Numbered from the stretch's first letter, positions 1 through 55,183 are shown. The stretch: DNA of 64,000 nucleotides from Nitrospirota bacterium (GCA_963749655.1 CAVVOB010000024.1:128001-192000), one strand, 5' to 3'. Numbers and translations: made by a program. Notes: generated from the sequence alone by a model not told the origin.

Positions 1-2
1 TG

Positions 3-728
3 GGGGCAGCTGCGATGTTCTATCTTCAGACATACCAGCCTCTCACAACGGATTATGCCCGCATGAAGGAAGACATGGCCGCGCTGAACAAAACGAAAGC
101 GGAATTGGCCAAAATCAAAGAAAAAGAGAACAGAGAAACTGCATGGCTGAACCCCGTGATCGACGGATTAAGCAAGGAGTTCGGCGACGAAATAAAGGCG
201 GGCGAGATCGAAGTGCTTGCTGCAGGCAACCGGCTGATCGTGAACATTGCGGAGGATGCGCTCTACCTTTCCGGGTCTTATACTTTTTCAAAGGAAAGTC
301 CTAAGCTGAGAGGAAAACTGGTCTCTTTTCTGAAAAAATCCGAACTCAAAGGCAAGGATATCTGCATTGGAAATACGACTGAATCGACCCCAGCGCAACG
401 CCGGGGAAGAAAGGCAATTCCTCCGAAGGACGCCCGAACGCTTGCTGCGGAACGCTCTGCGGTCCTTATCAAGGATTTCGAGAAGAACGGTGTTGATCAG
501 AGCGTTCTTATTGGAGCGGCATTCGCGCCGAAAAATGCCGCCGCCGGCTTCAAGCTGAAAGATCGTAAGACGATCATCATCATTGAGTCCCCGATTGCCG
601 GACCTGCTGTGGCGACAAAGCAGGGCGCTGCACAGGGAGTCCCTGCGACAGCAACGGCTCCCACTGCCACACAAAAGATGCAACCCAAGACGATCCCGAT
701 CAAGCCTGCTCAACCGAAAACCAACTAG
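3..728 (+). CDS. OmpA/MotB-like domain protein, 5'-truncated by the window edge
   Basis: Frame is open to the window start. A coiled coil is followed by a MotB-like region (IKAGEIEV...LIVNIAEDALYLSGS...LAAERSA) and an Ala/Thr/Pro-rich tail. Confidence 0.55.
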   Translation, partial: GAAAMFYLQTYQPLTTDYARMKEDMAALNKTKAELAKIKEKENRETAWLNPVIDGLSKEFGDEIKAGEIEVLAAGNRLIVNIAEDALYLSGSYTFSKESPKLRGKLVSFLKKSELKGKDICIGNTTESTPAQRRGRKAIPPKDARTLAAERSAVLIKDFEKNGVDQSVLIGAAFAPKNAAAGFKLKDRKTIIIIESPIAGPAVATKQGAAQGVPATATAPTATQKMQPKTIPIKPAQPKTN

Positions 729-796
729 TTGACGGGCTCTTACGGAATGCCGTTCGCGCTGTTCTGCAGGGAGAAACGTCCGCAGTAAGCGGTATA

Positions 797-1924
797 TTGA
801 TGGCCGATGACCACCTCATAGATAGAGTCTCCGCACTGGAGGCGGAACTGCGACAGGCCCATGCCCGCGAAGAGACTCTGGAGGACCTGCTCGAAAAAAA
901 ACTGAACGAAATCTATGTTCATTATCATATCTCACGGACCATCGGTTCCATCGACAACCTGCAGGAGATGCTTCAGCAGGTCATCGACATTATCAAAAAA
1001 GCCCTTCCCTGCGATCGAGTATCAGTCTATCTCCTCAATGAGGAGCTCGAACAGCTGGAGCTCGTGTTCTTCAACGGCCCCGGCCCTGCCCGGCGGGTTC
1101 TCCTGCCGGTCGGCGTCGGGACGCCCGGACGCATTGCGGAAAGCGGCGAACACGTTCACTTCCACGACCTGTCGATTTTCTACGAGACGTTCAACGATTT
1201 TATCCATCACCCCGACGAAGAAAAAAGGAGTGGATCGTATATCGGGATTGCCCTCAAAGTGCACAACGCCACCATCGGTATCATCGGGATCGACAATCAA
1301 ACCCGGTACGGTCTGAGCGTCGATGACATGGACTTCATGGCTATCCTCTCTCACCAGATCGCCGCAGGTGTGGAGAAGTCGCTTCTCTTCGAAAAAATCC
1401 AGAAGATATCCCAGCATGACGGCCTTACCGGTCTCTACAATTACCGGATGTTTCAGGAAAAGCTGGTGCAGGAAATCAACAGAAGAAGCAGAAGCCGAAA
1501 ACCGCTCGCGCTCATGATGCTCGACATCGACCATTTCAAGCGTTTTAACGACACCTACGGACATCAGGCGGGCGACGCTGTGCTGAGGGAGCTGTCAAAA
1601 ATAATCATCAGCCAGACGCGCTGCGGCTCGATTGACATCTGCTGCCGGTATGGGGGAGAGGAATTTGCCGTCATCATGCCGGAGCTCGATTTGGTGCAAG
1701 CCGGAAAAGTCGCCGAACGTCTGAGAAAAACGGTTGAGGAAACGCAGATCGCCACCGGGAACAGGATTGTGCACGACCGTGTCACAATCAGCCTCGGCGT
1801 GGCGTGTATTGAAGGTGAAGACGATTTGTCGCCGGAAGAATTGATCAAGAAAACCGATGACGCACTGTACTGGTCAAAACGAAACGGAAGGAACCGCGTG
1901 AGTTGGAGCCCGAAAGAGAAGTAA
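797..1924 (+). CDS. GAF-GGDEF diguanylate cyclase
   Basis: GAF region, then HDGLTGLYN, DIDHFKRFNDTYGHQAGD and RYGGEEF. Confidence 0.93.
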   Translation: MMADDHLIDRVSALEAELRQAHAREETLEDLLEKKLNEIYVHYHISRTIGSIDNLQEMLQQVIDIIKKALPCDRVSVYLLNEELEQLELVFFNGPGPARRVLLPVGVGTPGRIAESGEHVHFHDLSIFYETFNDFIHHPDEEKRSGSYIGIALKVHNATIGIIGIDNQTRYGLSVDDMDFMAILSHQIAAGVEKSLLFEKIQKISQHDGLTGLYNYRMFQEKLVQEINRRSRSRKPLALMMLDIDHFKRFNDTYGHQAGDAVLRELSKIIISQTRCGSIDICCRYGGEEFAVIMPELDLVQAGKVAERLRKTVEETQIATGNRIVHDRVTISLGVACIEGEDDLSPEELIKKTDDALYWSKRNGRNRVSWSPKEK

Positions 1925-2010
1925 TGTCCTGTCGAAAGTTCAATACCCGAAAGGGTTCTATGATGGTGTCTCCCATCGCGTCCCCCGCCTGGCCACCACC
2001 TTAGTAAGGC

Positions 2011-3900
2011 TTAGAACGGCCTAGACAACTTTACGTAAAAAAGTTGCTGCTCCGTCCGATCAGCATTGTTGGGCGAATCCTGCCGCCACCGATACTGCAC
2101 CGAGACGAGTATCTGCCGGATCCGGTAATCCAGATAGGTATCCAGCAAATAAACTTGAGTCCGAGTCGTGGAGGAATGTCGGTACTCATCCCGCAGGTCC
2201 GATCGAAACTGAAGGTTCCTGGTGAGAGTATAATTAAACTTCGCGGCGCCGTAAATCACGTCATCGTCGGTTTGCGTTTCGCTCGACGATGTCAGAGTGG
2301 AGATCGTATACTCCGTGCTTGTGTTCGACTTCTGGCGCGACAGGCCGGTGCTGAGCGTCAGATAGTAAGTCGGGGTATAGTCGGCGCCGAGGTCATAGGA
2401 GAACGAACGGCCCCTGTTGCTCGTCGTCTGGTTGGCCTCGACCATGGAGAGGACCAGACTCGCGTAGCGCTGCTCCTGGTAAGCGGCTGTAGCGCGCAGC
2501 GTGGTTCTGGTCACACGCCGGGATAAAAAATTGAATTTCAGACTCTCCACTTCCGAGTTGTTCTGGAGCGTAGAGCTGTCCCTTTTATTCGAATAGGAGG
2601 CGTACAGCGAGAGATTCTCCTGTTTCCAGTCTTTGCTGTTGAAGCCCATATCCGCTGCATTCGTATAGTAAATACCGCTCCCGGTCTGCTGGCCGCTTAT
2701 ATTCGATGTATACCGCGCAAAACCATAACCGAAGGTGTAGTCTGTGAGAAACGAAAACGGTCCGAGAAATTCCGGCGTATATATTTTCTTGTACGAAACG
2801 CCTGCCTCTGCGCCGCCGCTTGAAAGAGTGCTGTCTTGTTCCGGCGTGCTGTCGGTCGCCTTCGTCACATAGTTGGCGATGGTATACTTCAAGCCGCCGG
2901 TTGCCGATAAATATTCATTGATCTTATACGTCATACCGGCTGCAGCGGTCTGATAACTACTGAAAACAGACGATGACTGCATATCATAAAAGTTGTAGCT
3001 GTAATAATGACGGATGCTGTTTTTTTCCTTGAAATCAAGCTGCGCGTTCATTGTCGTGGCGAGGGATGAGGAGTCGAAACCGGACATGTTCTTCGTTGTG
3101 CGATCGGTCAAGTTGCCGTTGATTTTCAAGTCGGCATTCCGGGTCACCTGCGTCGTGGCGTCCAGGTTCACCGTTGTGGTATCGTACGCTGAAGAATCTT
3201 CCAGATTTTTGTATTTCTCCAGGCCCGCCGTAAGGTCCAACTTCGTCGAAGAAACCGGATGAAAATTCAGCGCAGCCTGGGTCTTGTCCAGGGTTTCATG
3301 GCGCGGGGAATCAGAACTAAGGGATTCGGATTCGGTGTGAGTGCTGCTGAGAGTGATATCAGGCAGCGGCATTTGCCAGGACTTTTTAAAATTATTATTA
3401 TTATTATTGTTGTTATTATTATTGCTGCTGCTATTGTTCCTTCCATTTCTGATTCCTCTGCTCAAATTCAGGTACACCGTGCCTCCATACTGGGTCGACA
3501 GGATATCATATCCTGCAATGGTGGAGTCGCTTTGTACGGTTGTCGTGCTTTTTGCTACAAAAAAATCGGCGCTGTACTTCATCCCGGGGAAAAGACTTGT
3601 AGAAAAATTATAGTCAAGTGACTTGCTGCCCTGGCCGTGGGCTGAGTCGTCAACCCGATAACCAATGCCGAGCGTATATTGTATCGCCCGGGGATCCAAG
3701 AAATAATTCTGTAAATTCGCCTTATAGTACTGGCTCCATTGCTGATCGGAACTCCGAGCACTGCCTGTTTTTGTTTCGTAATTACGGTAGGAAAATTCCA
3801 CAATACCCGAGACGTTATATGCGTCAGCCTGGCTGGTCAGGAGCGCCAGAGCGAGGGATAGAAAGAAATATATTGCTGCATTTTTAAGAACAGTCTTCAC
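2011..3900 (-). CDS. Large outer-membrane beta-barrel protein (cytochrome-cluster-associated porin/export barrel candidate)
   Basis: Signal peptide (..ADA|YN), alternating aromatic beta-strands rich in Tyr/Ser/Thr, and a C-terminal BAM-type signal FYVKLSRPF. Confidence 0.75.
   Translation of the reverse strand: MKTVLKNAAIYFFLSLALALLTSQADAYNVSGIVEFSYRNYETKTGSARSSDQQWSQYYKANLQNYFLDPRAIQYTLGIGYRVDDSAHGQGSKSLDYNFSTSLFPGMKYSADFFVAKSTTTVQSDSTIAGYDILSTQYGGTVYLNLSRGIRNGRNNSSSNNNNNNNNNNNFKKSWQMPLPDITLSSTHTESESLSSDSPRHETLDKTQAALNFHPVSSTKLDLTAGLEKYKNLEDSSAYDTTTVNLDATTQVTRNADLKINGNLTDRTTKNMSGFDSSSLATTMNAQLDFKEKNSIRHYYSYNFYDMQSSSVFSSYQTAAAGMTYKINEYLSATGGLKYTIANYVTKATDSTPEQDSTLSSGGAEAGVSYKKIYTPEFLGPFSFLTDYTFGYGFARYTSNISGQQTGSGIYYTNAADMGFNSKDWKQENLSLYASYSNKRDSSTLQNNSEVESLKFNFLSRRVTRTTLRATAAYQEQRYASLVLSMVEANQTTSNRGRSFSYDLGADYTPTYYLTLSTGLSRQKSNTSTEYTISTLTSSSETQTDDDVIYGAAKFNYTLTRNLQFRSDLRDEYRHSSTTRTQVYLLDTYLDYRIRQILVSVQYRWRQDSPNNADRTEQQLFYVKLSRPF
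3391..3423 (-). repeat. AAT/AAC trinucleotide tract encoding 11 Asn
   Basis: Plus strand reads attattattattattattgttgttattattatt, in frame inside the barrel gene. Confidence 0.9.
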
Positions 3901-3951
3901 GAGGATATTTGCTTAATTCCTTTGCATCATATTTCACGCCTAACTGATGAA

Positions 3952-3967
3952 TGCAAATATCCTGCCC
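3952..3967 (-). promoter_or_regulatory. sigma54 (-24/-12) promoter of the beta-barrel gene
   Basis: Minus strand GGGCAGGATATTTGCA has exact GG-N10-GC spacing, about 50 nt upstream of the GTG start. Confidence 0.6.
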
Positions 3968-4039
3968 ATTACATAATATATTATTATGTTGTTTTTCAAC
4001 TACTTAATTGTTTATTAGCAGCTCGGTAGGAATGATAAA

Positions 4040-4077
4040 TGAGCATAAATGCTCATTGAGGTGAGTATAAATACACT
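4040..4077. promoter_or_regulatory. Palindromic activator site(s) TGAGC-N6-GCTCA (bEBP UAS candidate)
   Basis: TGAGCATAAATGCTCA at 4040-4055, plus a degenerate copy TGAGTATAAATACACT 22 bp further on. The same motif occurs at 8062. Confidence 0.6.
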
Positions 4078-4122
4078 AATATAGCAACAAAGAATTAGCG
4101 GCTTGATTCAACAGTTTACGGC

Positions 4123-5061
4123 TCACTTGGCCTGTTTCTCTTTAATGGGAATCAATTCAATCTTTGCCTTTGCTCTCAATGATGTCAGCCACGCCTCCAG
4201 CAGTTCTTTATATTTTTCTTTTTCCTGGTCCTTTTTGAGCTTGTCTTTTACTTCAGCGAAAAGCATCTGATGCTCAGGCTGTATATCTTCAACCTTGATG
4301 ATATACCACTCGCCTTCCGCCGCGATAATATCGCTCACCTCGCCAACTTTCATTTTAAAGGCTGCGTTTTCCAGTTCAGGCACGATCCTGCCGCGGTGAA
4401 TATATCCGAGATCGCCACCCTTAACGCGATAAGCGTCAGCAGACATCGCCTCAGCGATGTCGCCGAAATTCTCTCCGGTCTTGATTCTGGTCAGTGCTTC
4501 TTCTGCCTTTTTCAGGGTCGTCGAAGAGATTATACGCAGCCGCACACCTTCCGGTTTAATGAATTTGGATGTATTGTTCTGATAATAATTCTTCAGCGCC
4601 TCGTCACTGATTTTAGAAGGTTCTGCTGCCATCTTTCTGGTTGCCTCCTGCGCGACGAGCCATTTTTCGATCCGCTCAATAAGGGCAGCCTCGGTCAGTC
4701 CCGTCCGTTCAAGGGTCTCCTGATACTCCTTTTTGGACTTGAAGCCGTCCCTGATCCGTTTTATTTCCGCCTTTACCTGTTTTTTGTCCGGCTTAAGACC
4801 TCGTGCGACACCATCCTGATACCGGAGTTCCAGGTTGACCAGATTTTCCAGCGCTTTTTCACGAAATTCCGCACGCCTTTCTTCCGTTACATTCCCGTGA
4901 TATGTTGCACGCGGGATCAAGGCGTTTATTTCCGACTCAACGTCCCCGTTAGAAATAACGGCACCGTTCACTTTGGCGGCAATGTCGATTTGTTCCGCAG
5001 CGAAAGCATGTATGCCGTAAAAAAGAAAAACCGCTTGCACCAACACGACGAACTTCTTCAT
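4123..5061 (-). CDS. Periplasmic parvulin-type peptidyl-prolyl isomerase (SurA/PrsA-like)
   Basis: Signal peptide, AAKVNG SurA-N-like start, and PpiC motifs (GENFGDIA, KGGDLGY, ELENAAF, GEVSDII). Confidence 0.9.
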   Translation of the reverse strand: MKKFVVLVQAVFLFYGIHAFAAEQIDIAAKVNGAVISNGDVESEINALIPRATYHGNVTEERRAEFREKALENLVNLELRYQDGVARGLKPDKKQVKAEIKRIRDGFKSKKEYQETLERTGLTEAALIERIEKWLVAQEATRKMAAEPSKISDEALKNYYQNNTSKFIKPEGVRLRIISSTTLKKAEEALTRIKTGENFGDIAEAMSADAYRVKGGDLGYIHRGRIVPELENAAFKMKVGEVSDIIAAEGEWYIIKVEDIQPEHQMLFAEVKDKLKKDQEKEKYKELLEAWLTSLRAKAKIELIPIKEKQAK

Positions 5062-5182
5062 TACGAGCAGATCTCCTTAATCAAGGTTCAGCGATAAAAC
5101 AAAGCCTCAGGCGCTGCAAAGGGTTCCCGCTTTTTGCACCCCTGCAATTAAGACGTCTCCGGCCGATCGCATCACAATCCGG

Positions 5183-6289
5183 TCACTTCTGCTCCTCGGC
5201 TTTTGCCGGGGGAACGCTCTTCACGACATTTCTCTGACTGAAGTCAAGATAGGCTTTATATTCGTCAGGGTGTTCTTTTTTCCATTTTACGCTCAGATAC
5301 TGGAAAACCTGGATTCTTGAGTTCACTTGATCGGCGACATAGATCCTGTCTTGAGAGTCCACAAACAGGCCTGCCGGCAACTGGAAGGCCCCGGCGCTGC
5401 GGCCTGCGTCGCCGATATAGGATAGGAGCTGTCCGTCCTTATTGAAAATCTGGAAATTATTAAAAGCTGCGTCAGCAACATACACCTGCTCTTCGCTGTC
5501 AACTCCGATGCCTTTGGGTCGCGAAAAGGTGCCGAACACGTCGCCAAGTTCTCCGAACTTGCTGATGAATTTCCCGTCGGGATCAAAAATCTCGACACGG
5601 AAGTTGTTCGTGTCCACAACGTATACATTGCCCGAGGCGCGACTCACGGCTATATTGGTCGGTCCGTACAATTCGCCGTTCTCACTGCCTTGTTTTCCTA
5701 TGCTGAACAGATATTGTCCTGCAAGAGAATACACAAAAATAGTATGGGCCCTGCTGTCTACGACATACAACCTGCCCAAACGGTTATTGACTGCAAGGCC
5801 GCTGGGGTTTTTCATGCCCTCTTTTGAGCCGAAGGTCCTCAAAAACTCGCCCTGTGCATTGAATGCCGCTACTCTTCCCAGTCCGCCGTCCGCGATAAAG
5901 ACAGACCCGTCATCGGCCACAGCCACGCCCAGCGGTTTGCGTATGACCACCTCCGGTCCCTTTGGGAGAAAGGACACCGTCTGCTGCTTTGTATCCATAA
6001 TGACGACGGTCGCATTTACGGAATCGGCAACGTAGATTTTTTCGGCCCATGCGCTAACGCCGTAGGGTTTTTGTATATCCGCCCCGGAAAGTCTGGAGCC
6101 CAGCAGCATATCGAGGAAGGTCGGCTCTTTAAGGTCGATCATCCCCCGATAGTACTTGAGAAATGCTATTTTGGGTTCATCGGGCGCCGGAGGCCATACA
6201 AGCTTATGCGTGGAATCGGTCTTTGCCGCACAGGCGAAGAGCATCGCCGCCAGAGAGACAACAGATGCGAAAAAAAACACTTTTCTCAT
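5183..6289 (-). CDS. NHL-repeat beta-propeller lipoprotein
   Basis: AGGAG RBS before MRKVFF, lipobox LFAC, WPPAPDEPKI motif, and multiple NHL repeats (P.G+AV...+YV.D). Confidence 0.9.
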   Translation of the reverse strand: MRKVFFFASVVSLAAMLFACAAKTDSTHKLVWPPAPDEPKIAFLKYYRGMIDLKEPTFLDMLLGSRLSGADIQKPYGVSAWAEKIYVADSVNATVVIMDTKQQTVSFLPKGPEVVIRKPLGVAVADDGSVFIADGGLGRVAAFNAQGEFLRTFGSKEGMKNPSGLAVNNRLGRLYVVDSRAHTIFVYSLAGQYLFSIGKQGSENGELYGPTNIAVSRASGNVYVVDTNNFRVEIFDPDGKFISKFGELGDVFGTFSRPKGIGVDSEEQVYVADAAFNNFQIFNKDGQLLSYIGDAGRSAGAFQLPAGLFVDSQDRIYVADQVNSRIQVFQYLSVKWKKEHPDEYKAYLDFSQRNVVKSVPPAKAEEQK

Positions 6290-6692
6290 GCTTAACTCCT
6301 CGCCGGGATAAACGGCATTTATAAGCGCTCCCGCCCTGCAAAGGAAGACTTTTTCGAGAGCGCGAACACCATTTTTTACCACAGTTCAATCCTGCAAGTC
6401 AAAACAATAATCACGAACGGACTGGACTGTGCAGGGTGGTCACCGGTAACGCCACTCGCCTCACCATCGGAAATGCACGGAACCCGGAATGCCTGCAAAC
6501 AGACCACAGATGCGCGCTACTTCGAAAATCAGCGCCATGCGTTGAGATACTGACTAACTTCTTTAAAATGACTCGTCAAAATGATCATCCCGAAAAAGTC
6601 GCGAAAGACTCTTTTCGTGCTGCGTTGAAGAGGTGTCATTATTATCGAGGCATCAACAAAGGGATGCGTTTTTTTTATATAAAACTATTTTC

Positions 6693-6718
6693 ACGCGGAG
6701 ACGCGGAGTCGCGGAGAG
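6693..6718 (+). repeat. Three 8-nt-period CGCGGAG units (one arm of an intergenic repeat family)
   Basis: acgcggagacgcggagtcgcggagag; related to the element at 50151-50222. Confidence 0.55.
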
Positions 6719-6923
6719 AGGATAAATCTCTTAAGAGTCGTTAGTTATATAATATTGGATTAATCAGGAGCCTAATTTAATATCTTCTCGTCTTTCGTTG
6801 ACTTCTCTTTAAGTAGCTGGTCGTACCTGGCTGCTTTACACGAGATTGTCATTCGCAGCATTTTTCAGTTTTTTAACCGGTTCTTCTGTGTCCAAATATT
6901 GAGTAGCCTAACCTTGATCAGAG

Positions 6924-6955
6924 AAAAATAAAGGAGGGGTTGCCCCCTCCTTTAT
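6924..6955 (-). terminator. Intrinsic terminator after the cytochrome gene
   Basis: ATAAAGGAGGGG/CCCCTCCTTTAT 12-bp stem followed by a U-tract on the minus strand. Confidence 0.8.
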
Positions 6956-6979
6956 GATAAAACCAGACTGGTACTGCGT

Positions 6980-7658
6980 CTACTTGTTGGCGTGGCATCC
7001 GACGCAGATCCCTGAAATAGCGACGCGGAGGAACTTTGTATGCGTCGTATTGTCATGAGGATCATGGCAGGAACCGCATTCAACCGTAAGGGTGGTCCCG
7101 TTATTATACACTTTCAAACCATTATTCGCGCTAGTGGTAAGATCGGTAAGACCTGCTGCACCGGGACGATACTCGATACCGACCGGATGGTCGTTCGTGA
7201 GTGCGTTCGTGCCGTCGATTATGTCGGCAGTGCTGTCGGCCGTGATCGTATCCGTTGCAGCGTTGAAGCGGGTCGCCGTAGTAGCCGTGATATCGCCGCC
7301 CTGTGTTGCGCCGTACACTGTCGTCACTGCCGTTGCGCCGTCATGGCAGCTGAGACAGGTCAAGGAATTGGGGCCCAATGCAGTCGGGGCCGCGGCGCTC
7401 AATGTGGTCGACGAGTACAGAGAATAAGCATTCGTCGCCGCGACGGTTCTGTTCCAGAGCGGCGCACCAGTGGCTACCCGGGTTCGACCGGTGAGGGGTA
7501 TGGCAATACTGACAAGCCGATATACCCGTGGCGTTCGTATAGGAACCGCCCGTTGAACCAGAAAAATCATGCAAACTCTGCGCAACTGCTGCCATTGCAA
7601 CATTCGCTCCGACGAGCGCCATTGCAACTACTACTGCTACAACCAAAATCTTTTTCAT
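6980..7658 (-). CDS. omcE: Tetrahaem c-type cytochrome, OmcE-like (one-base frameshift near 7477-7482)
   Basis: Joining ORF 7341-7658 with ORF 6980-7627 gives about 225 aa: signal peptide, HDFS, CQYCHTPH, PLWNR, LYSS, CLSCHDG, NDHPV, ECGSCHDPH, FLR, CVGCH. This is the motif order I recall for Geobacter OmcE. Confidence 0.8.
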
Positions 7659-7981
7659 TGCATTTTTCTCCTTTTCTTGTAATTTTACGTCCTCACAAAT
7701 TTACAGAACTTAAAATTAGTCCCCCCCCCGCCATGCTATTCGAAATTTAACGATCATCACTTCGAATCGCCCACCGAAACCAACTAGCGGCGGTTGTGAA
7801 TATGCTGCTTGTTGGCAGCCATTCCCTCCTTCCCGCATTCATGCTGATTAATGAATAAACTTACTGAACATTCAAGTGCGGTTGATAAGTTCTCTAGTAA
7901 ACAAGCTATGAATTAATGATTTTATTTGATTGAATTCAAATGTATTTATGAAGCGCTGTTACTTTTTCATGACGTTATCTT

Positions 7982-7997
7982 AGCAATAGGCATGCCA
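7982..7997 (-). promoter_or_regulatory. sigma54 (-24/-12) promoter of the cytochrome gene
   Basis: Minus strand TGGCATGCCTATTGCT is near the consensus TGGCACG-N4-TTGCW. Confidence 0.75.
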
Positions 7998-8061
7998 TAG
8001 CGTAACAAATTGAAAAATAATATAAAAATTAAAAAAGAGATATCCTAATTGATGGTTATCT

Positions 8062-8097
8062 TGAGCGATATTGCTCATTGCTGATGGTATATGCACA
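8062..8097. promoter_or_regulatory. Palindromic activator site(s) TGAGC-N6-GCTCA (bEBP UAS candidate)
   Basis: TGAGCGATATTGCTCA at 8062-8077, with a weak second copy TGATGGTATATGCACA at 8082-8097. Confidence 0.6.
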
Positions 8098-8488
8098 TGT
8101 GACAATGTATAAATTCAACCTGTCACAGGTCTCTGGATTTCCCAAAAAAAAAGTTTTGTGTACGTATCGTGAAGGAATCGGAAGGCAAAAAAAAATGGTG
8201 TTTGAGAAAAGAGTATAACAAGAAGAAAAAAAATTTGTGAGTTTTTTACTGCAACAAAGAGTTTATTTTATGCGTTTTGTGACATATTTATGCGATCGAC
8301 TGTGAATTTCGATCATTGCCTGATACATATTGACCGAAAATCGAGATCGAAAAACACAGGTGTCCCAGTGTCTTTGAAAGTAGAAATCACGTAAGGCTAA
8401 TAGGTGCAAGAGGCGGGCTTCTTTGACGTTTACAGCAATACTCCGGCAGGAAACAAATGCAGGCAACCGTCACACTGCAACGCGTGAA

Positions 8489-9319
8489 TCAGCGTCGCAT
8501 TTTCAAGGTATTGTTTATGTATTGTACGAAACCTGCGGCCCGTTGACGCGCTGCGGGATCGGATTCCATGGACGCATATTTCGTCGCATACTCCATTGCC
8601 TGCCTGTAATTTCCCGCCTTTTCCATGGCAATGGCCACGTTCCAGTACCGAGCGGGAACATCAGGTTCACGTTCGATGGCCATGAGGAAATACTTGACCG
8701 CTTTTGCGTATTCCTGTTTGCCCATGTATGCCTGGCCCATGGTGTTGAGCGCTTGCGGCATGCCGGGACTTCCGGCAAGGGCAGACTGGGCAACCGAGAC
8801 GGCCTCGTCGAACCGGTTTTTTTGCATCAGGACGATCGACAAATTGTTGAGAAGGCTGGGATCATTCGGAGCATAGCGCAATCCCGTTTTCCACGCCTCG
8901 ATGGCGTCGTAATACCGGGCCATCCTGAAATGTACGACTCCGATCTCGCGATAAAGGTCGCGGAGCGGAACGCTTCCATCGTCCGGCAGGGATATGACCG
9001 TCTCGAATTCGCGCAGGGCGGATTCGTAGTATTTCGTTGCCTCAGCCACGGACTTGGACAACGACCCAGCGGTGGACAGCGCCTGCCCGTAGTTCTCGTG
9101 CGCTCTCCGCTTGTTCGGGGCGCTCTCCGTCACGCTTTTCCAGAGTGTGACATAGGTGTGGTAGATGCTGTTTCTCGCATAGGCCGCCGCGCCCAGGGCG
9201 CCGATTATCAGCATATACAACGCCACCGTTACAAGGACAAGCCTGTTGTCCTGCCGGGGAATTGTCATTGAGACCGAAGCCCCCTGCACCTGCTTCGATC
9301 GTTTCTTTCCTTTCGCCAT
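8489..9319 (-). CDS. Membrane-anchored TPR protein resembling the C-terminal half of TMTC-like glycosyltransferases
   Basis: One TM helix, then ARNSIY..YVTLW....SAPNKRRAHENYG and several TPR repeats. AAGGAG RBS before MAKGKK. Confidence 0.75.
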   Translation of the reverse strand: MAKGKKRSKQVQGASVSMTIPRQDNRLVLVTVALYMLIIGALGAAAYARNSIYHTYVTLWKSVTESAPNKRRAHENYGQALSTAGSLSKSVAEATKYYESALREFETVISLPDDGSVPLRDLYREIGVVHFRMARYYDAIEAWKTGLRYAPNDPSLLNNLSIVLMQKNRFDEAVSVAQSALAGSPGMPQALNTMGQAYMGKQEYAKAVKYFLMAIEREPDVPARYWNVAIAMEKAGNYRQAMEYATKYASMESDPAARQRAAGFVQYINNTLKMRR

Positions 9320-9420
9320 GCCTGCTCCTTGCTTAAGCAACCGCCTGCGTCACCTCAGATTTTGCATTCTATCTGTGCACTCGGCTTTGTGTCAAGAAAA
9401 ATGATTCCTATTCCTGTATC

Positions 9421-10497
9421 TCAGTGAGTCTGCTCCAGGGTCGTACCGGGGTAGTAATGAGACAGGATCGATCGGAAGTCGGAACCGTTCCGGGCCATTT
9501 CTCTCGCGCCCCACTGGCAGAGCCCCACGCCGTGGCCGCTCCCTCTGCCCGAGAACACCGCCTCATCGCCCGACAGTTCCACATCAAAAAAAACGCTTGG
9601 TATCATGCTGTTGCCGATGGCGGCCCTCAGGACTTCCGCGGGGACCGTCCTGGTCCGGGACGGACCGCGGATTATGACGTCCTTGACCCTTCCTGCGGGG
9701 GTTATCTCCCCTATTCCCATGTCCCTGATGTCGACCAGGCCGTATTTGATGCGACGCAGGGCGCCGGCGATTTGCGAGATTTTGATACGCTTTTCCCACA
9801 GCCCGTTGGTCACGATCTCCTGGCAATTGCAGTCCACACCCTTGAGATAGGGTTCGTCTATGCCCCAGAGCTCTGCGGCGTTTTCCGTATGGCCGCCGCA
9901 GCTCGCATGGTAAAACGCCGGTATGATCTCTCCCTGATATGCGACCACAAGTCCCGTGGTCGCCCGTACTGCCTTGATTCCCTGCGGACGCTCACCGCTG
10001 ATTCCGTTATAGACTTGACTGTCGACAGTCGCGCGAATGTGATAAGGCCTGTTCCCCGCCGTCCCCTTCTGATACAGCGCGTAGGTCCGCGATGCAACCG
10101 CCTGCGCCTTCAGTGCCTCTTCCTCCCAGTCCGAAGGGATCTCCGAGGTGATGACTCCCCTGAGATAGTCCTCGATGTCCAGGTCGTTGATCACCAGAAG
10201 AAGCCCATTCTTCTTTTTGCGGAGCTCCATCCAGCCGCGGTATCGTTTTCCGTTCAGCCGGACAATTCCGTCCACGGCCCTGATGCGAAGAGGATTCCGG
10301 TCAAGGTCAGCGGGCGTGAATGTCAGCTCAAGCGAACCTGATCCCGGTTTGCGGCCATCAAGGACAAGTCCTGATGATGAGCCGACCGTAACCGTCTTTC
10401 GGCCGTCTGCAAGGGCTACACGGATGTGATCAGAAGCGACGGTCGGTGAGGGGAAACAGACGATGAACGTCAGCCAGATTAACAGTTTCCATTTCAT
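9421..10497 (-). CDS. SpoIID/LytB-domain lytic transglycosylase
   Basis: YRG..E, IEDYLRGVITSEIP, ALKAQAVASRTYA, and GSGHGVGLCQWGA motifs. Confidence 0.92.
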   Translation of the reverse strand: MKWKLLIWLTFIVCFPSPTVASDHIRVALADGRKTVTVGSSSGLVLDGRKPGSGSLELTFTPADLDRNPLRIRAVDGIVRLNGKRYRGWMELRKKKNGLLLVINDLDIEDYLRGVITSEIPSDWEEEALKAQAVASRTYALYQKGTAGNRPYHIRATVDSQVYNGISGERPQGIKAVRATTGLVVAYQGEIIPAFYHASCGGHTENAAELWGIDEPYLKGVDCNCQEIVTNGLWEKRIKISQIAGALRRIKYGLVDIRDMGIGEITPAGRVKDVIIRGPSRTRTVPAEVLRAAIGNSMIPSVFFDVELSGDEAVFSGRGSGHGVGLCQWGAREMARNGSDFRSILSHYYPGTTLEQTH

Positions 10498-10610
10498 GTT
10501 CACGGACGATCGCCTCAAGAAGGGCCAAAATGCAGAGAAACGCACGGGAGCGTTGACGGAAGCACCATAATTATTCATTCTCATTATCAATTATAAAGAA
10601 GGTGGGAGCG

Positions 10611-11150
10611 CTATCCTCTTGATTTTTTTTCATACCGTTCTTTTTCGCTGTAAATGCACCCGCAATACTGCTGGCGATAAAGTCCCATGGCCTTGGATTC
10701 GACGATTCCCTCGCGCCATCCCCGCCGAAAGTCCTCATAGTAGAACTCGACGCCATACTGGGCGGCCATTTCACGTGCCACCCCGGCAATCAGGTCATGT
10801 TTCTGGTATTTGCTGTAAAGCAGGGACGTCGAAAACAGAGGGAACTTGTCCTGTCGCGCGGCAGCGGCAACTGCATCGAGACGCATCCGGTAGCAGGACT
10901 CGCACCGCAGCGCCCCCCTCCCCGCTACACGAACAAGAAACTCGTCGAGATCATAGCCGTCCCGAAAAGTGACGTCGAGCCCGACGCGGCCGGCAAATTC
11001 CCTGACCGTGTCGAGCCGCCTGCGGTACTCGAGATAGGGATGGATGTTGGGATTGTAGAAAAAACCTCGCGGCTCAAAACCTTCTTCCTTGAGACGGTAG
11101 TAGGGATAGATGGCGCAAGGAGCGCAGCACATATGGAGAAGTATCGTCAC
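10611..11150 (-). CDS. queH: Epoxyqueuosine reductase QueH
   Basis: LLHMCCAPC, YNPNIHP, CESCY..RL, and YRQQYCGC motifs (DUF208 family). Confidence 0.92.
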   Translation of the reverse strand: MTILLHMCCAPCAIYPYYRLKEEGFEPRGFFYNPNIHPYLEYRRRLDTVREFAGRVGLDVTFRDGYDLDEFLVRVAGRGALRCESCYRMRLDAVAAAARQDKFPLFSTSLLYSKYQKHDLIAGVAREMAAQYGVEFYYEDFRRGWREGIVESKAMGLYRQQYCGCIYSEKERYEKKSRG

Positions 11151-11366
11151 AGTATTTCCCTGATTTCAAAACAAACGGCGGCTTCGACGGTGCGCAGATT
11201 GAATAAAACCATTTCTTATATACTGATGTGTCGCAGTCACGTGACTGAGTAAATCATGGGGAATGAGTATTGATCGCCGCATGGTGCCCTCAACAGTGAG
11301 ACGAACCTGTTCTCCCGGAGAAATCGTTTGGATCTCCTCGGGAGTGAGCCCTACGATCTCTGTTCG

Positions 11367-13051
11367 TTACCTACCAGTGCTATTGAGTCTTTGTTCAATT
11401 TGTTCAAAAACCGCCTGATATTTATGCTTCGGCGCTATGCTCAGGAACATCTTGTAGTAAAAGTATGCCCGAGCAGTATTTCCAAGCTTATCGTAGGTCA
11501 GTGCGATGTTGTAGCAGGCGTCGTAATTATCCGGATTTTTCTCTATTGCGGCCCGGTAAAACGTCAGGGCCTTGTTAAATTCTTTCCTAGAAAAATAGTT
11601 ATTCCCCTTTCCTGCGAGCGCCGAAGAACTATTCGGGGCCAGTTCAAGTTCCTTGTCAAAATAGACCATGCTCTCTTCAGCATTGCCAAGTTTGCCGTAA
11701 ATCTGCGCAATGATATCGTAAAGGCCGGCCAACTCATTAGACGGCGCTCGTTGTGTTGCCGTCTTAAGAACGTTCAAAGCGAGGTCGGGTCGCCCTGACC
11801 TCTCATGAAATGCGGCTAATCCCACATATCCCCCGAGCATATCGGGGTTATCGGCGATCAGTTTGGAATAAAATCGTCCGTCATTCTTCCAGTCGTTATT
11901 CGCAATTATCGTCAATGTGCCAAGCGTAACGAAGGGTGGCGGCAGCCATGAGCATCGTCTTGCGGCCAAGGCGCTTATTCATGGCATCGGTAAAATCGGC
12001 AACAATCAACATAAATCCGACAGACGGCAGGTAGAGATGACGCACAGCAAATGCTGGAACGTCTTTAAATGCCAACGACAAGGCAGGACCTAATATGATG
12101 ACAACCCACGCAATGGCAAAAAGCAGTGCGCTTGTTTCTCGGTGTGTAATAGATAAGCGCGCCGATGAGACAAACAGAAAACAGAATCGTTCCCAGGCCA
12201 ATGGTCGCGTTTTTCGGGAGAACAAAATAAAACGGAAGGGGCCACGGCAAAACAAGAAGCTTGATATAATGGGAGAAAAAACTGACCAAATGTGTCATCC
12301 CCTGGCCGGATAAGGATAGTATGCCGGAAACTTTTGTGAGGACCAGGGACCTGGTCAAGAGGTATGCCGCGCCGACTATGATATAAGCCGAGAGCCGAGC
12401 GATGCGAAGCTTCTCGGCCACAAGATAATCATAGAGGAAAACAACAGGAATAAAAACAATTGCCGTTTCTTTCGACAGGACGGCGCAGATGAAAAGAATG
12501 ACTGAGGATACGAAAGCGCTGGTTTTATCGTGAAGCGCATAGGCCCGGTAGGACAAAAATGCAGTAAGGAAAAAGAACGTCGCCAGGACATCAGTGACAC
12601 CTGAGATCCAGGAAACCGATTCCACATGAAGAGGCGTCAGCGCAAAACAAACGGCTGCAACGAGGGCTGGGAATATGCTGTCATATTCTGCGAGGGATCT
12701 GATCAGGAAAAAAACCAGAATTGAGTTGGCTATATGGATCATGATGTTGAATAGGTGATATCCAAAAGCGTGCTCCCCCCAAAGATAATAATTGAGTGCA
12801 ATACTGACCAGGTGGAGAGGCCGATACATTAACGGGTCTGCGAGATTAAGTTCTGAGCTGTTCCATACCCCTTTCGTAAAGTATTCGGGGACATAGGAGA
12901 AAGATGTAATCTTGATATTATTCAGGATCATCGGCCGATCATCGGACACAAAATCTCCACCGATGCTATTTGCGTATACGATCACGATACTTGCAATGAT
13001 TAAGAGAATTGATCCGATATGAAATTTGTTCTCTCTTAAAATTGATCGCAT
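11367..13051 (-). CDS. TMTC-like GT-C glycosyltransferase with C-terminal TPRs (two frameshifts, near 12130 and 11935)
   Basis: Three consecutive ORFs join into a paralogue of 17225-18910: FVSDD, YRPL, GYHLFN, PLHVESVSWISG, SKE, RHLYLPS, NNDWKND, then TPRs. Confidence 0.8.
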
Positions 13052-13099
13052 GCCAAAAACATCCTCCCTACCTCTTTTTTCACCTACCCGTGATTGACC

Positions 13100-13534
13100 T
13101 GCGGGTTGTGCAAAATACAGCGCCGGAAAATCTCGATCCTTATTCCTTTGTAGTCAAGTAGTAGTTGCCGTTCCCCGCGAGAGCCGAAAAGCTGTCCGGG
13201 TTTCGTTCAAGCTCTTTCCGGTAATAAGCAATGCTCTCACCGGTTTTACCTTGTTTGCGGAAAATTTGCCCAATGTGACCGTAAAGATGAGAGCGTTCCT
13301 TGGAAGTCACCCATTGTCACGCCATGTTCAGAACATTGATAGCCAGGCCGGGCTTTCCGAACCATTCATGTGACTCGGCTAATCTGATATATCCGCCTAA
13401 TACCTCGGGCAAACGATCCCTCCCCGATCGAGGACACTGACGAGCGCACGGTAGAGAGGGCTGATCATTTTTTCCTCGTTCAATACCGGAGCTACTATCA
13501 ACAGTGTCGGCGCCGCTTTTCCTTCAGTCATCAT
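13100..13534 (-). pseudogene. Deletion-fused remnant: GT2 N-terminus joined to a TMTC TPR fragment
   Basis: 13534-13397 reads MMTEGKAAPTLLIVAPVLNEEKMISPLYRALVSVLDRGGI (GT2 start). It is followed by PEVLGGYIRLAESHEWFGKPGLAINVLNMA*QW...SALAGNGNYYLTTKE*, which aligns with the 11367 TPR region and has in-frame stops. Confidence 0.75.
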
Positions 13535-13543
13535 CGTGCAGCC

Positions 13544-14272
13544 TTATCGTTTCCTCAGGACCGCCAGATAACTGGTCCCAAGGGGAAGAGATGCAAATTT
13601 CATGGCCAGCCTATCCAATGAGAATATTCCGTATAATGCCGCATTGATCCAGGGCGCCGGCAAGTATAAATCGCTTTTCTGCCGCCCGCTGTCCCGCCTG
13701 ACCAGCCGGAAACAGGCGATCGCGGAAAACAGCATGCAGTTGAAGGACGAGAAAAAAAGCTCGTCCACTGCAGAATCCTTCCAGAGTCGACGCAACTCCC
13801 GTCTGCCATACCGACGCTTGTGCCCCAGCGCCTCATCGTGTCCACTCCAAAGGAAGCGGTGCGCGGGAACGGTAACGACGAGACAGGCGCCTGATTTCAA
13901 ACGGCGGATAATGTCGTTCAAAAAAACGAAATCCTCGCCGACGTGTTCAAGAACGTCGGCCAGCACCACGGCATCCAGGTGCTGCCACCTGCCGCGCAGA
14001 ACGTCGCGGAAGTCACCGCAGTGAACGGTCAGGCCGGGCCTCTGCCGGGCAAATTCCACGGCATGGGACGAGATGTCCACGCCGAGCACGTCATAATACT
14101 CGCGGAATGCGTTGAGATTGCCGCCGGTGCCGCAGCCTATTTCCGCAACGGTTCGCCCCTGATGCTGCGGAACGTATTTCTTCAATGCGTCGAGCAGGAT
14201 GGCTCGTCTGGCCATGAACCACCAGTGAACGTCCTCAATGCGTGCATGCAGCGCGAATTCAGACGGGTCCAT
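13544..14272 (-). CDS. Class I SAM-dependent methyltransferase
   Basis: HWWF..RR, EIGCGTG, DVLEH, TVPA..FLWS.HD..GH.RRY motifs, typical of glycosylation loci. Confidence 0.88.
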   Translation of the reverse strand: MDPSEFALHARIEDVHWWFMARRAILLDALKKYVPQHQGRTVAEIGCGTGGNLNAFREYYDVLGVDISSHAVEFARQRPGLTVHCGDFRDVLRGRWQHLDAVVLADVLEHVGEDFVFLNDIIRRLKSGACLVVTVPAHRFLWSGHDEALGHKRRYGRRELRRLWKDSAVDELFFSSFNCMLFSAIACFRLVRRDSGRQKSDLYLPAPWINAALYGIFSLDRLAMKFASLPLGTSYLAVLRKR

Positions 14273-14274
14273 GG

Positions 14275-15294
14275 CTACAGCAGTTTCTCCTGGGCTGATG
14301 CGGGCTTCTTCCTTCCGAAATATTCATAGGCCAGCCGTGTGGCCAGCCGTCCCCGCGGGGTGCGGTCGAGAAAGCCCTCCTGGATCAGGAAGGGCTCGTA
14401 CACGTCCTCAAGGGTATCCTTTTCTTCGTTGAGCACGGCGGCCAGCGTTTCGAGCCCCACCGGTCCGCCGTCGAACTTGTCGATAATGGACAGCATGAGC
14501 ATGCGGTCCATGTGATCGAGCCCCTTCTCATCCACTTCCAGCCGCTTCATCGTACTCACCACGAGGTCCTGCGTTATCGCGCCGTTTCCCTGAACCTGCG
14601 CAAAATCCCGCACCCTCCGGAGCAGCCGATTGGCGATCCGAGGCGTTCCCCGCGAACGCCGGGCTATCTCAACGGCGGCATCGGCTTCTAATGCGGTCTG
14701 GAGCAGACCGGCCGAACGCTGGACGATCCGTCTGAGTTCTTCGGGAGCATAAAAGCCGAACCGGTCGATGACGCCAAATCGATCACGGAGGGGGGAGGTA
14801 AGCAGGCCCGTCCGTGTGGTTGCGCCCACCAGAGTAAAAGAAGGCAGATCGAGCTTGATCGAGCGCGCTCCCGGGCCCTGCCCGATGATGATGTCCAGCT
14901 GATAATCCTCCATGGCCGGGTAGAGGATTTCCTCGACGACATGGTTCAAACGGTGGATCTCATCGATGAACAGAACATCGCGATCCTGGAGGCTCGTGAG
15001 AATGGCGGCCAGATCACCGGCTCGCTCAAGCACCGGACCTGAGGTGGCCTTGATGCTTACCCCCAGTTCGTGGGCGATGATGTTCGCGAGGGTGGTCTTG
15101 CCGAGCCCCGGCGGTCCGCAGAACAGCACGTGATCGAGCGCCTCCCCCCTTGCCCTGGCCGCGTTGATGAAGACGCGCAGATTGTCTTTGATCCTGTCCT
15201 GACCGACAAAATCTTCGAAGCGAAGAGGTCTCAGGCTACGGTCCAATTTTACATCATCATCATTCTGTTCGGGTTCAATGATTCGTTTCGGCAT
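14275..15294 (-). CDS. ruvB: Holliday junction helicase RuvB
   Basis: [29 protein letters not shown], and [17 protein letters not shown]. Confidence 0.98.
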
Positions 15295-15324
15295 AGTTCC
15301 GGTCCACTCGAATAAAGTATAAGG

Positions 15325-16107
15325 TCAGCATGCCTGTGCGATCACGTATTGCGTCCAGAGCAATTGCTGACACGATCCCCGACGGCATTTCTTTTCCAGC
15401 CATTGTTCAATGAGTACCGCTGTCTCACCTGCCAATTCGGCGAAAACCGGCAAGTAGAAACCCGAAGTAAAGTATTCATTTAAGCGAAATCCGGCCGACG
15501 TCAACTGATGGACGAGATCATTCCGTGTTAAAAGGTTAAGATGGCCGAGACCCTGAACCGGCTCCCGGTAAAGCAAAGAAACAATTCGCTTGATCCCGGG
15601 CAAAAACGCTATTTTTGCCAAAATTTCCAGCGGACTGTATTTCTGAGGCGTTGATAAAATCAAAATCCCGCCGGGCTTTAGAAGACGATGCATTTCCTTG
15701 ATTGCCGTCTGTGAATCCCTAATATGCTCAACGACCTCGCTGCAAAGGATAAGATCAAAGCTGTTTGACGGCAACAATGATCGGGCGATGTCATCACCGA
15801 GGAGCTTCAGGCTCGGATAGCGATGTGCCAACGCTCCAAGGTCGGCGAGAAAACTGTCTTCGACATCGATTACCGTAACATTGGTACAGCACTCGGACAG
15901 TGCCGGTATATAGACGCCGCTGCCCGGACCAACCTCCAATGCATTTTCTATTTTTTCAGCTGCCATTCGTTTTAATGAATTGATTATCCATTCACGACGA
16001 CTGGAATGAAGCCACTTCCGGGTCGGATTCCTGGACTGATATATGGTTTTTTGTATTTGAACCGCTGAGGGATCTTGACTCACGCTATCACCACCGCTCC
16101 CCATCAT
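15325..16107 (-). CDS. Class I SAM-dependent methyltransferase
   Basis: LEVGPGSG, FDLILCSEVVEH, and LKPGG.LILSTP. Confidence 0.88.
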   Translation of the reverse strand: MMGSGGDSVSQDPSAVQIQKTIYQSRNPTRKWLHSSRREWIINSLKRMAAEKIENALEVGPGSGVYIPALSECCTNVTVIDVEDSFLADLGALAHRYPSLKLLGDDIARSLLPSNSFDLILCSEVVEHIRDSQTAIKEMHRLLKPGGILILSTPQKYSPLEILAKIAFLPGIKRIVSLLYREPVQGLGHLNLLTRNDLVHQLTSAGFRLNEYFTSGFYLPVFAELAGETAVLIEQWLEKKCRRGSCQQLLWTQYVIAQAC

Positions 16108-16111
16108 CAGC

Positions 16112-17062
16112 TTATAGCTGTTGATTCCCGTTACTGGTCTCTCTTACGATATAGAGCGGCCTTTTCTGTGATTCGCTATAAATTTTCCCCACATACTCAC
16201 CGATCACGCCGAGAAATGTAAGCTGAACGCCGCCAAGAAAAAACATGCCGGTGGTGAGCAGCGCATACCCGGGGATGTCCAGCCCCCGGAACAATTTATA
16301 AAGAACGATATAGCCGCCCATAAAAAAACTGAAACAAATAGTGAGCAAGCCGAATAAAATGCATATGCGCAACGGCACCAGGCTGAACCCGAAAAGAGCG
16401 TCCATGGAAAGCAAGGTCAGGCGGATCCAGTTATACTTGGTTTTGCCTGATTTCCTCGGCATCCGTTCATATTCGATGGAACACTGCTTGTAACCCAACC
16501 AGGCAAAAAGTCCCCGGACAAACCGATTTCGTTCCGAGAGCTGATTGAAGGCATCAACAACCTTTCTGTCCACCAGTCGGAAATCTCCGACATCCGCAGG
16601 AATTTTGACCGAGCTGAAGGCACTCATGATCCGATAAAATACATGAGACGTAATTTTTTTAAATATATTTTCTCCGCTTCGCGACTTTCGCCGTGCATAA
16701 ACCACTTCATGGCCTTCCCGCCATAATTCGTACATTTTGGGGATCAGTCCCGGCGGATCCTGCATATCGGCATCAATAAGCACAACCGCGCTTCCCCGGG
16801 TCATTCGCAGCCCGCAGCTGGACGCAGCTTCATGACCGAAATTACGGCTGAAAGAAGCAAAACGCACCCGCTTGTCTCTCTCCGCCACTTGCTTTATCAC
16901 CTTCAGGGAGCTGTCCTGCGACCCGTCATCGACAAATATCAGCTCAAAAGCGATTCCCGCCTTGTCCAGAGCGGCGCAGACAGCTTCGTGAAGCTGCTCG
17001 ATCGAATCTTGTTCATTATACACAGGAGTTACCACTGAAAGTATGGGAATAGCTTCAGCCAT
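16112..17062 (-). CDS. GT2 polyprenyl-phosphate glycosyltransferase (GtrB/ArnC-like)
   Basis: SVVTPVYNE, VDDGSQD, SRNFGH, DADMQDPP, GDFRL, two C-terminal TM helices, and GEYVGKIY..RPLY. Confidence 0.92.
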   Translation of the reverse strand: MAEAIPILSVVTPVYNEQDSIEQLHEAVCAALDKAGIAFELIFVDDGSQDSSLKVIKQVAERDKRVRFASFSRNFGHEAASSCGLRMTRGSAVVLIDADMQDPPGLIPKMYELWREGHEVVYARRKSRSGENIFKKITSHVFYRIMSAFSSVKIPADVGDFRLVDRKVVDAFNQLSERNRFVRGLFAWLGYKQCSIEYERMPRKSGKTKYNWIRLTLLSMDALFGFSLVPLRICILFGLLTICFSFFMGGYIVLYKLFRGLDIPGYALLTTGMFFLGGVQLTFLGVIGEYVGKIYSESQKRPLYIVRETSNGNQQL

Positions 17063-17224
17063 TACGCCTCCCGACCTTTTTCAGAACAAGCAATAACTGG
17101 CGCCGCAAGGCAGGGGAACGATACTGATCACAAACATCAGCAACGAGATTATAGGGTGCTGTATCCATCACAGGTTTTATAATTTGGCTGTCGATCACGA
17201 CACATCGGCTGCAGATGCAATTTA

Positions 17225-23913: not shown

Positions 23914-24081
23914 GATTGCTGCAGTCCTCCGGGATGGGACGAGATCAACGGTGCGGACGCGCATTCTGCTAATTCGGCTATTCTACCAGAAAGAAGCAAG
24001 TCTTTTCAAGCCCTTTTTATTATTGACAAAAACGGCGTGAACATATAATAACGCCGATATCGGTAAGCACGAAGGAGACCT

Positions 24082-31445: not shown

Positions 31446-31462
31446 TGTAATCGGAGGATGTC

Positions 31463-32619: not shown

Positions 32620-32709
32620 CAGATACCGAAGCGGTGAGGCGTAAGGAGTAAGGTGAACAAAAGCCTTCGATCGTTTCCGTCTCCCGGTCCTAATGATTCG
32701 GAGAAACCC

Positions 32710-33498: not shown

Positions 33499-33586
33499 TG
33501 CAGGATTCAAGTGAAGCAGGATGTGATCATGTCGTCCTTCCCGGCACGGCTTCTGGATTCGGTTGCATCTTTTCAAGGAGCTTCCC

Positions 33587-35718: not shown

Positions 35719-35739
35719 CAACGGGATCAGGAGCTTGAA

Positions 35740-36795
<1,056 letters not shown>

Positions 36796-55161: not shown

Positions 55162-55183
55162 CAGGTCCTTACCAGCGGACAGG

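Follow-up and report, generated by a model that had tools for sequence, protein, structure and literature searches.

The window examined here is a stretch of 64,000 nucleotides from a metagenome-assembled genome (MAG) of a Nitrospirota bacterium (GCA_963749655.1, CAVVOB010000024.1:128001-192000). Its minus strand holds a compact cluster of four genes, in which a multihaem cytochrome gene hidden by a frame break is followed by genes for an NHL-repeat beta-propeller lipoprotein, a parvulin peptidyl-prolyl isomerase (PPIase) and an outer-membrane beta-barrel. Judged by homology, the hidden gene encodes a true OmcE-family tetrahaem cytochrome, and the locus probably belongs to the OmcE-type clusters for extracellular cytochromes ('nanowires'), as a Nitrospirota representative of the filament type. 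Both the cluster type and its occurrence in Nitrospirota are already in print, and this locus is a further member. Particular to it are its lean gene set (a single propeller and a parvulin, but no partner multihaem cytochrome), its presence/absence polymorphism and the indel that hides the gene. The cytochrome gene has the following parts:

7341..7658, minus strand: 5' part of the OmcE-like cytochrome gene, an open reading frame (ORF) of 105 residues with the signal peptide and the first haem motif

7477..7482, minus strand: CCCGGG run at the frame break, with a surplus base; in contigs of close relatives a base is absent at 7476/7477

6980..7480, minus strand: 3' portion of this gene, in the other frame, with its stop at 6980

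6928..6955, minus strand: hairpin resembling an intrinsic terminator, directly 3' of the cytochrome stop (stem of 12 bp including 6 G-C pairs; T-run)

The gene appears as two overlapping ORFs in different frames of the minus strand. The 105-residue ORF opens with the signal peptide MKKILVVAVVVAMALVGANVAMA, followed by a distal histidine in HDF and then by CQYCHTPH, and the ORF at 6980-7627 (215 residues) carries PLWN, CLSCH, NDHP, CGSCHDPH and CVGCH. A single four-letter step at the CCCGGG run fuses the two into a read-through protein of 225 residues, here called P0001, with four CxxCH motifs and additional histidines at HDF, CHTPH, NDHP and CHDPH. Translation of both frames revealed no extra stop or indel in either part. 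The gene is preceded by a spacer of 830 bp and separated from the NHL gene by about 640 bp; an Rfam scan of positions 1-12000, including the upstream spacer, returned nothing at E<=1.

Searched against all PDB chains, P0001 matches 7tfs_A (E 1.7e-23, 86.8 bits, residues 13-223 against 13-231) and, over its full length, 9yuq_N (E 1.4e-19, residues 1-223). These are respectively the OmcE filament of Geobacter sulfurreducens (PMC12954529, Fig. 2 legend) and the OmcE bundle of Desulfuromonas soudanensis WTL (PMC13712944, data availability). The next-best haem protein in this search stands at E 0.45, and no OmcS chain was found among the matches at E<=10. The alignments pair the four CxxCH motifs and the histidines of HD-, CHTPH, NDHP and CH--H in both structures, and they pass undisturbed across the frame break (CHTPH...PLWNR); consequently, the joined protein is far beyond chance. 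The likeness to OmcE thus covers full-length homology, size (225 residues here, 232 and 218 in the two structures), the signal peptide, the four CxxCH motifs in the same order and the four further histidines at aligned positions. It differs from OmcE in that conservation is confined to the haem-binding blocks while the loops diverge, that the host belongs to Nitrospirota and not to Desulfuromonadia, and that the gene is broken in this assembly, its product being so far a putative filament subunit.

All eight cysteines and the four histidines of the haem motifs (C49/C52/H53, C101/C104/H105, C194/C197/H198 and C218/C221/H222), as well as the four further histidines (H30, H56, H157 and H201), are invariant in a family alignment of 49 sequences. 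The family is very large: of 8000 candidates scored, 5706 clusters reach E<=1e-5, and the top one is only about 48% identical. The AlphaFold 2 (AF2) monomer of P0001, built from a 49-row alignment and without haems, was unusable for a fold search (mean predicted local distance difference test score, pLDDT, 51.4; predicted template-modelling score 0.36), as expected for a coil-rich, haem-scaffolded protein. A complex prediction combining four haems with two mature copies of an orthologue that is 38% identical to the window protein (from G030, a complete genome of the same phylum) scored 0.10 against a mark of 0.42, which is evidence neither for nor against assembly.

By comparison with related sequences, the frameshift is probably an indel introduced in sequencing or assembly and not the mark of a dead gene, since relatives lack the base exactly there, a further orthologue is open across the site and at least four other genes of the window are broken as well. 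Contigs from four public runs (X1, X2, X4 and X5) were compared with positions 6900-7800, and the break is spanned by record 1 of X1 (530 nt, 33 differences) and by record 12 of X5 (371 nt, 20 differences). Each misses one letter at 7476/7477 and is free of any other indel in the coding region, the frame reading ...HRSNPAATGAPLWN... in these contigs. The two contigs, from soil metatranscriptome libraries made in a single study, represent relatives 94-95% identical to the window; runs X2 and X4 gave no contig spanning the break. As no public run contained at least half of the sequence words of the window, any statement on habitat is limited to the occurrence of relatives' contigs in soil RNA libraries. 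The orthologue of G018, a genome of the same family and another genus, is open across the break site and interrupted elsewhere by its own run of N.

Four other genes between positions 22413 and 36481 of the window are split, with the halves of their Pfam domains in adjacent frames. They encode a DegP-like protease (Trypsin_2 positions 1-108 and 114-144, ORFs 23257-23964 and 22413-23270), an acyl-CoA dehydrogenase (ORFs 31451-32374 and 31912-32619), ETF-beta (ORFs 32638-33144 and 32697-33590) and the fatty-acid-synthesis reductase FabG (ORFs 35719-36387 and 36125-36481). This suggests that the assembly, a MAG of 39 contigs and 4.27 Mb that is 86.6% complete, carries many indel errors, and that genes will consequently be overlooked where this genome is annotated from ORFs. 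Programmed frameshifting was also considered, and it was dropped because the relatives simply lack the base and other genes of the window are broken too. A real frameshift, which would make the cytochrome a pseudogene in this strain and the block a decaying accessory island, strikes us as very unlikely. It would account for the extra base in the assembly and would suit the absence of the block from all 14 same-genus genomes searched, where the flanks adjoin in several and which indicates a lineage that loses the block readily. Yet the three downstream genes are intact, neither part of the cytochrome gene has decayed further, relatives 94-95% identical are in frame at exactly this base, and the breakage of at least four other genes within the same 64 kb, fabG included, points to assembly indels and not to selective decay.

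Three further genes follow the cytochrome gene on the same strand:

5183..6382, minus strand: NHL-repeat beta-propeller, probable lipoprotein (4 NHL repeats, Pfam E 1.4e-34)

4123..5061, minus strand: SurA-like parvulin PPIase, periplasmic (Pfam SurA_N_3 and Rotamase_2, signal peptide)

2011..3900, minus strand: outer-membrane beta-barrel of 629 residues (28 predicted strands, signal peptide, C-terminal ...SRPF)

All three are intact and full length, and a signal peptide can be read from the sequence of each of the four cluster proteins. The true start of the NHL gene is likely at 6289 (MRKVFFFASVVSLAAMLFAC, MRKVFFF...MLFAC), which, as read from the sequence, provides a lipobox-like LFAC. No Pfam or NCBIfam family was detected in the barrel, nor in the barrels of G030 and of the Desulfuromonadales locus L115. 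Its ORF has eight homologues detectable by k-mers, itself counted, and a search of 1.84 billion proteins with a profile of ten sequences recovered 339 representatives at E<=1e-3, including 60 with E<=1e-30. The AF2 model of the barrel has 28 strands (mean pLDDT 80.7), and its structural neighbours (Foldseek, VIA) are MtrB at the top, BtuB, LptD and TonB-dependent receptors. Since the top neighbours are tied (MtrB, 6r2q_B, Z 18.1, 476 residues aligned, TMq 0.44; BtuB, Z 17.4), they establish the fold class alone. The ESM Atlas offered unnamed clusters of about 620 residues and one automatic 'TIGR03016' label, which was rejected as unsupported by the NCBIfam scan. A run of 11 asparagines occupies barrel residues 160-170 (positions 3391-3423) in a low-confidence loop (pLDDT about 30-35), and the consensus of the ten closest homologues has an asparagine run at this place as well.

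Much of this had been proposed in a first-pass annotation made from the sequence of the window. Its one-base repair at 7477-7482, yielding a secreted tetrahaem protein of 225 residues, was confirmed in coordinates and motifs, and the four extra histidines that it assigned to bis-histidine (bis-His) haems proved invariant in the 49 relatives. The alignment that it called for against G. sulfurreducens OmcE runs end to end, and Pfam domains and the AF2 barrel bear out its list of an NHL lipoprotein, a parvulin and a 629-residue barrel on the same strand. The strong terminator that it placed after the cytochrome corresponds to the hairpin listed above, and a similar hairpin also trails the G018 orthologue.

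The companion genes recur beside OmcE-like genes in many other bacteria. A scan with P0001 of one genome per species, covering many phyla, gave 79 loci, the best of which, in a Thermodesulfovibrionales MAG, encodes a protein 42% identical to P0001. By tblastn, 69 of these loci contain an NHL gene and 21 a parvulin PPIase, and the window barrel itself found nothing at 1e-5. Used as a profile, the barrel was detected in 12 loci from a single alignment and, after iteration, as a full-length member on the same strand in 47 of the 79. In its own 4.27-Mb genome the iterated profile matches the barrel of the window only, which argues that it has not drifted to barrels in general. Writing C for cytochrome, N for NHL, P for PPIase and B for barrel, the usual gene strings are C-N-B-N-C and N-C-B-N-C, with C-P-B-N-C in Nitrospirota. 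An OmcE-like cytochrome lies just downstream of the barrel in 42 of the 47 barrel loci, mostly with a second propeller gene in between. In 35 of the 47 (among L009-L083), the barrel and NHL genes are followed by a cytochrome of 8-12 haems and about 560-700 residues, whose N-terminal 210 residues or so form a complete OmcE-like domain.

A similar picture is obtained in Desulfuromonadales, represented by the 61 genomes in the order of a MAG so labelled. A 24-sequence barrel profile is matched at full length in 12 of them (E 1e-47 to 1e-95), and in five of five loci (L114-L118; barrel-profile E 1e-39 to 1e-58) the barrel adjoins an OmcE-like cytochrome and NHL genes, so that these loci fit the published omcE cluster. 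In L114-L117, too, a multihaem cytochrome of this long type is found, and its OmcE-like N-terminal domain matches the cytochrome profile at E 1e-46 to 1e-50. Locus L115 reads 13-haem cytochrome, OmcE-like 4-haem cytochrome, NHL, 5-haem cytochrome, barrel, NHL, 10-haem cytochrome. Three of the loci, L115, L117 and L118, encode a 4-haem OmcE-like protein in a gene of its own, and these proteins score 69.5, 53.8 and 50.8 bits against 7tfs_A compared with 86.8 for the window protein; no such gene was found in L114 and L116 within the stretch covered. These comparisons of gene neighbourhoods support the view that the companions belong to a module accompanying OmcE-like genes across phyla and in Desulfuromonadales. 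It is scarcely credible that the linkage is incidental, the cytochrome being a periplasmic carrier while the NHL protein, PPIase and barrel serve an unrelated envelope function. With its own terminator and the long spacer before the NHL gene, the cytochrome gene does not require a transcript shared with them, but such a linkage by chance would have to explain why an OmcE-like gene, an NHL gene and one specific barrel family stand together in 47 of 79 loci from many phyla, why the barrel profile matches nothing else in the genome, and why gain or loss affects the block as a whole.

Petersen et al. 2026 (mBio; PMC13712944) report OmcE homologues near a barrel and a beta-propeller lipoprotein in five phyla, Nitrospirota included, and describe the smallest Desulfuromonadia omcE cluster as two multihaem cytochromes, two beta-propeller lipoproteins, OmcE and a large beta-barrel. 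The claim to novelty in the first-pass annotation was consequently overstated; its expectation of propeller and barrel companions as in Geobacter-type loci held, the barrel family recurring in Desulfuromonadales clusters. Nearby barrel and propeller lipoprotein genes, by which Petersen et al. 2026 recognize nanowire-capable homologues, are both found in the window on the strand of the cytochrome gene. The window shares with the Desulfuromonadia cluster an OmcE-like subunit, an NHL propeller lipoprotein and a homologous large barrel, and the full published arrangement is seen in L115. It differs in having one propeller instead of two and no extra multihaem cytochrome, in the addition of a SurA-like parvulin, and in its order cytochrome-NHL-PPIase-barrel. 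The osc cluster accompanying omcS is alike in concept: the gene of a filament cytochrome stands together with those of a folding factor and of components for secretion through the outer membrane. Its OscH is a prolyl isomerase, and its OscG is a porin. In G. sulfurreducens, folding is attributed to OscH, secretion to OscE/F/G and morphology to OscD (citing text in PMC13194489). The window subunit, with four haem motifs, is unlike the hexahaem OmcS.

MtrCAB/Pcc systems also link a large outer-membrane barrel to multihaem cytochrome genes. A porin-cytochrome conduit is accordingly an alternative to be weighed: the tetrahaem protein would be a monomer seated in or on the barrel and propeller, in the manner of MtrC/MtrA with MtrB, and electrons would cross the outer membrane only. 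We regard such a conduit as unlikely. One argument for it, the rank of MtrB as top structural neighbour of the barrel model, is weakened by BtuB and other unrelated barrels lying within 1 Z unit, which leaves a similarity of fold class only, and the window barrel, with 28 predicted strands, has no Pfam or NCBIfam similarity to offer. The cytochromes of at least 8 haems with an OmcE-like N-terminal domain that follow barrel and NHL genes in 35 of the 47 barrel loci do resemble a conduit component. The window cluster itself has no gene for an MtrA-like periplasmic multihaem (decahaem) protein. Likewise, the family is far larger than the handful of proven filament formers, but the window subunit is nearer to OmcE than the 4-haem proteins of Desulfuromonadales are, as the bit scores given above indicate, and all eight ligand histidines of OmcE are invariant, including one that acts across the subunit interface.

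If the locus is an OmcE-type filament cluster, as we favour, the apoprotein would be exported by Sec and would receive its four bis-His haems in the periplasm, where the SurA-like parvulin may keep this largely coil-structured, haem-scaffolded cytochrome competent for assembly. The NHL-propeller lipoprotein and the 28-strand barrel would provide passage through, or an anchor in, the outer membrane, for which a 'porin-like pathway' is discussed in part of PMC13712944. At the cell surface the cytochrome would probably polymerize head to tail, one haem of each subunit being ligated by a histidine of its neighbour to yield a haem chain for extracellular electron transfer. Such ligation of the interfacial haem by a histidine from the adjacent subunit is described for OmcE (parts of PMC12954529 and PMC13712944). 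The partner multihaem cytochromes that most relatives have in the cluster are encoded elsewhere in this genome, for example by the NHL and decahaem pair on contig C32. The roles of the companions, export through the barrel, polymerization and the physiological electron acceptor are what we only infer.

Among the ORFs of the window, no CxxCH-rich ORF adjoins the block, which has a single cytochrome gene and a single NHL gene. Other cytochrome loci are found elsewhere in the same genome. Contig C32 (L085, 8198-10291) carries an NHL gene and a gene for a decahaem cytochrome of 697 residues with an OmcE-like N-terminal domain. On contig C10 (L084, 849-4611), an intact gene for a 252-residue OmcE-like tetrahaem protein is followed by one for a 1004-residue NHL/BACON/FG-GAP protein; a pair of the same type occurs in G018 (L105), followed by a 1686-residue cytochrome with 29 haems. 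The C10 pair looks like a second, different OmcE-linked module. Contig C15 (L086, 8557-17391) bears ORFs with 7, 9, 6, 13 and 8 CxxCH motifs and then two NHL lipoprotein genes, and may represent a further locus for electron transfer at the outer membrane in this organism.

With these loci elsewhere in the genome, the self-contained minimal four-gene system put forward in the first-pass annotation is not established: most barrel loci (the 42 of 47 above) have an OmcE-like cytochrome just 3' of the barrel, mostly paired with a second propeller gene, and here such a pair lies on C32. That the four genes nevertheless form an irreducible core, enough for export and assembly of a filament, with the multihaem partners known from almost all other clusters only feeding or anchoring it, wherever in the genome they are encoded, and the 8-to-12-haem cytochromes with an OmcE-like N-terminal domain serving as the base of the polymer, seems to us rather doubtful. 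According to the relevant passage of PMC13712944, OmcE operons offer no evident candidate for a base or anchor; an 8-12-haem cytochrome with an OmcE-like N-terminal domain could be the base or anchor subunit of OmcE-type polymers.

The exact order cytochrome-NHL-PPIase-barrel occurs in none of the 79 loci. It is contained in the string of G030, which reads NHL, 4-haem OmcE-like cytochrome, NHL, parvulin, barrel, NHL, 10-haem cytochrome, 4-haem cytochrome. In G018 the block lies at the same chromosomal site and is split over two contigs, the first with SpoIID, the cytochrome and the NHL gene up to the contig end, the second with the parvulin and the barrel (41% identical, E 1e-131) beside a GAF-GGDEF gene. 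Within the genus of the window, the missing segment is delimited as follows:

1925..8538: block of about 6.6 kb comprising the four genes and the 830-bp upstream spacer, missing between GGDEF and TPR flanks in same-genus genomes

In DNA comparisons, the distance between the GGDEF and TPR flanks without the block is about 92 bp in G006 and about 144 bp in G009. Since the flanks adjoin in these genomes, 1925-8538 has been gained or lost as a unit. The four-gene synteny assumed in the first-pass annotation is therefore kept, as to order, in G030 and G018, and none of the 14 same-genus genomes searched has the block. The annotation had also taken the host not to be Geobacter, and RuvB agrees: the window protein is 88% identical to that of a 'Nitrospiraceae bacterium' MAG and 65-68% identical to those of four MAGs labelled Thermodesulfovibrionales, Nitrospirae and Candidatus Sulfobium, which places the host lineage, on this protein comparison, in Nitrospirota.

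Several observations weigh against a working filament cluster at this locus. The contigs that span the frame break stem from relatives 94-95% identical, and a real frameshift specific to this strain may exist; the sole contig from a DNA run (X4) begins at 7478 and does not span the break. The spanning contigs come from RNA libraries, possibly with carried-over DNA, which only hints at expression of the cytochrome. The cluster is without the second propeller and the multihaem cytochromes of most of its relatives. The 14 same-genus genomes contain no barrel and no close cytochrome orthologue; the block is therefore an accessory trait, and it is possibly being lost. Finally, the family is very common (the 5706 clusters mentioned above) compared with the few solved filaments, and sequence alone cannot show polymerization. 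According to PMC13712944, there are solved OmcE filaments from G. sulfurreducens and D. soudanensis, and G. metallireducens has yielded images of putative cytochrome nanowires and bundles.

The locus leaves the overall picture unchanged, as the cluster type and its presence in Nitrospirota were already published. As a Nitrospirota example with an unusually lean gene set, it narrows the candidate assembly genes, and its natural presence or absence among members of one family lends itself to comparative tests. The soil contigs hint that the cytochrome gene may be transcribed in soils. On a practical level, the locus is a warning that a single assembly indel concealed a key gene from ORF-based annotation.

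The surroundings of the block show some further features. Genomes without the block share its near flanks. Directly beside the barrel gene is one for a GAF-GGDEF diguanylate cyclase (797-1924), and a PAS-GGDEF gene is located at 54262-55197; as the GAF-GGDEF gene is a conserved flank in block-less genomes too, it is not specifically tied to the block. Upstream on the same strand (11367-18910) lie genes for TPR proteins, a PMT_2 glycosyltransferase-like gene that is apparently split, two methyltransferase genes and a GT2 glycosyltransferase gene, which resemble the glycosylation genes described in part of PMC13712944 as trailing freshwater omcE clusters. A short dispersed repeat of 35-40 nt (6680-6720) lies in the spacer that separates the terminator of the cytochrome from the NHL gene; it has 9 other copies of 78-94% identity in the same genome and more in same-genus genomes.

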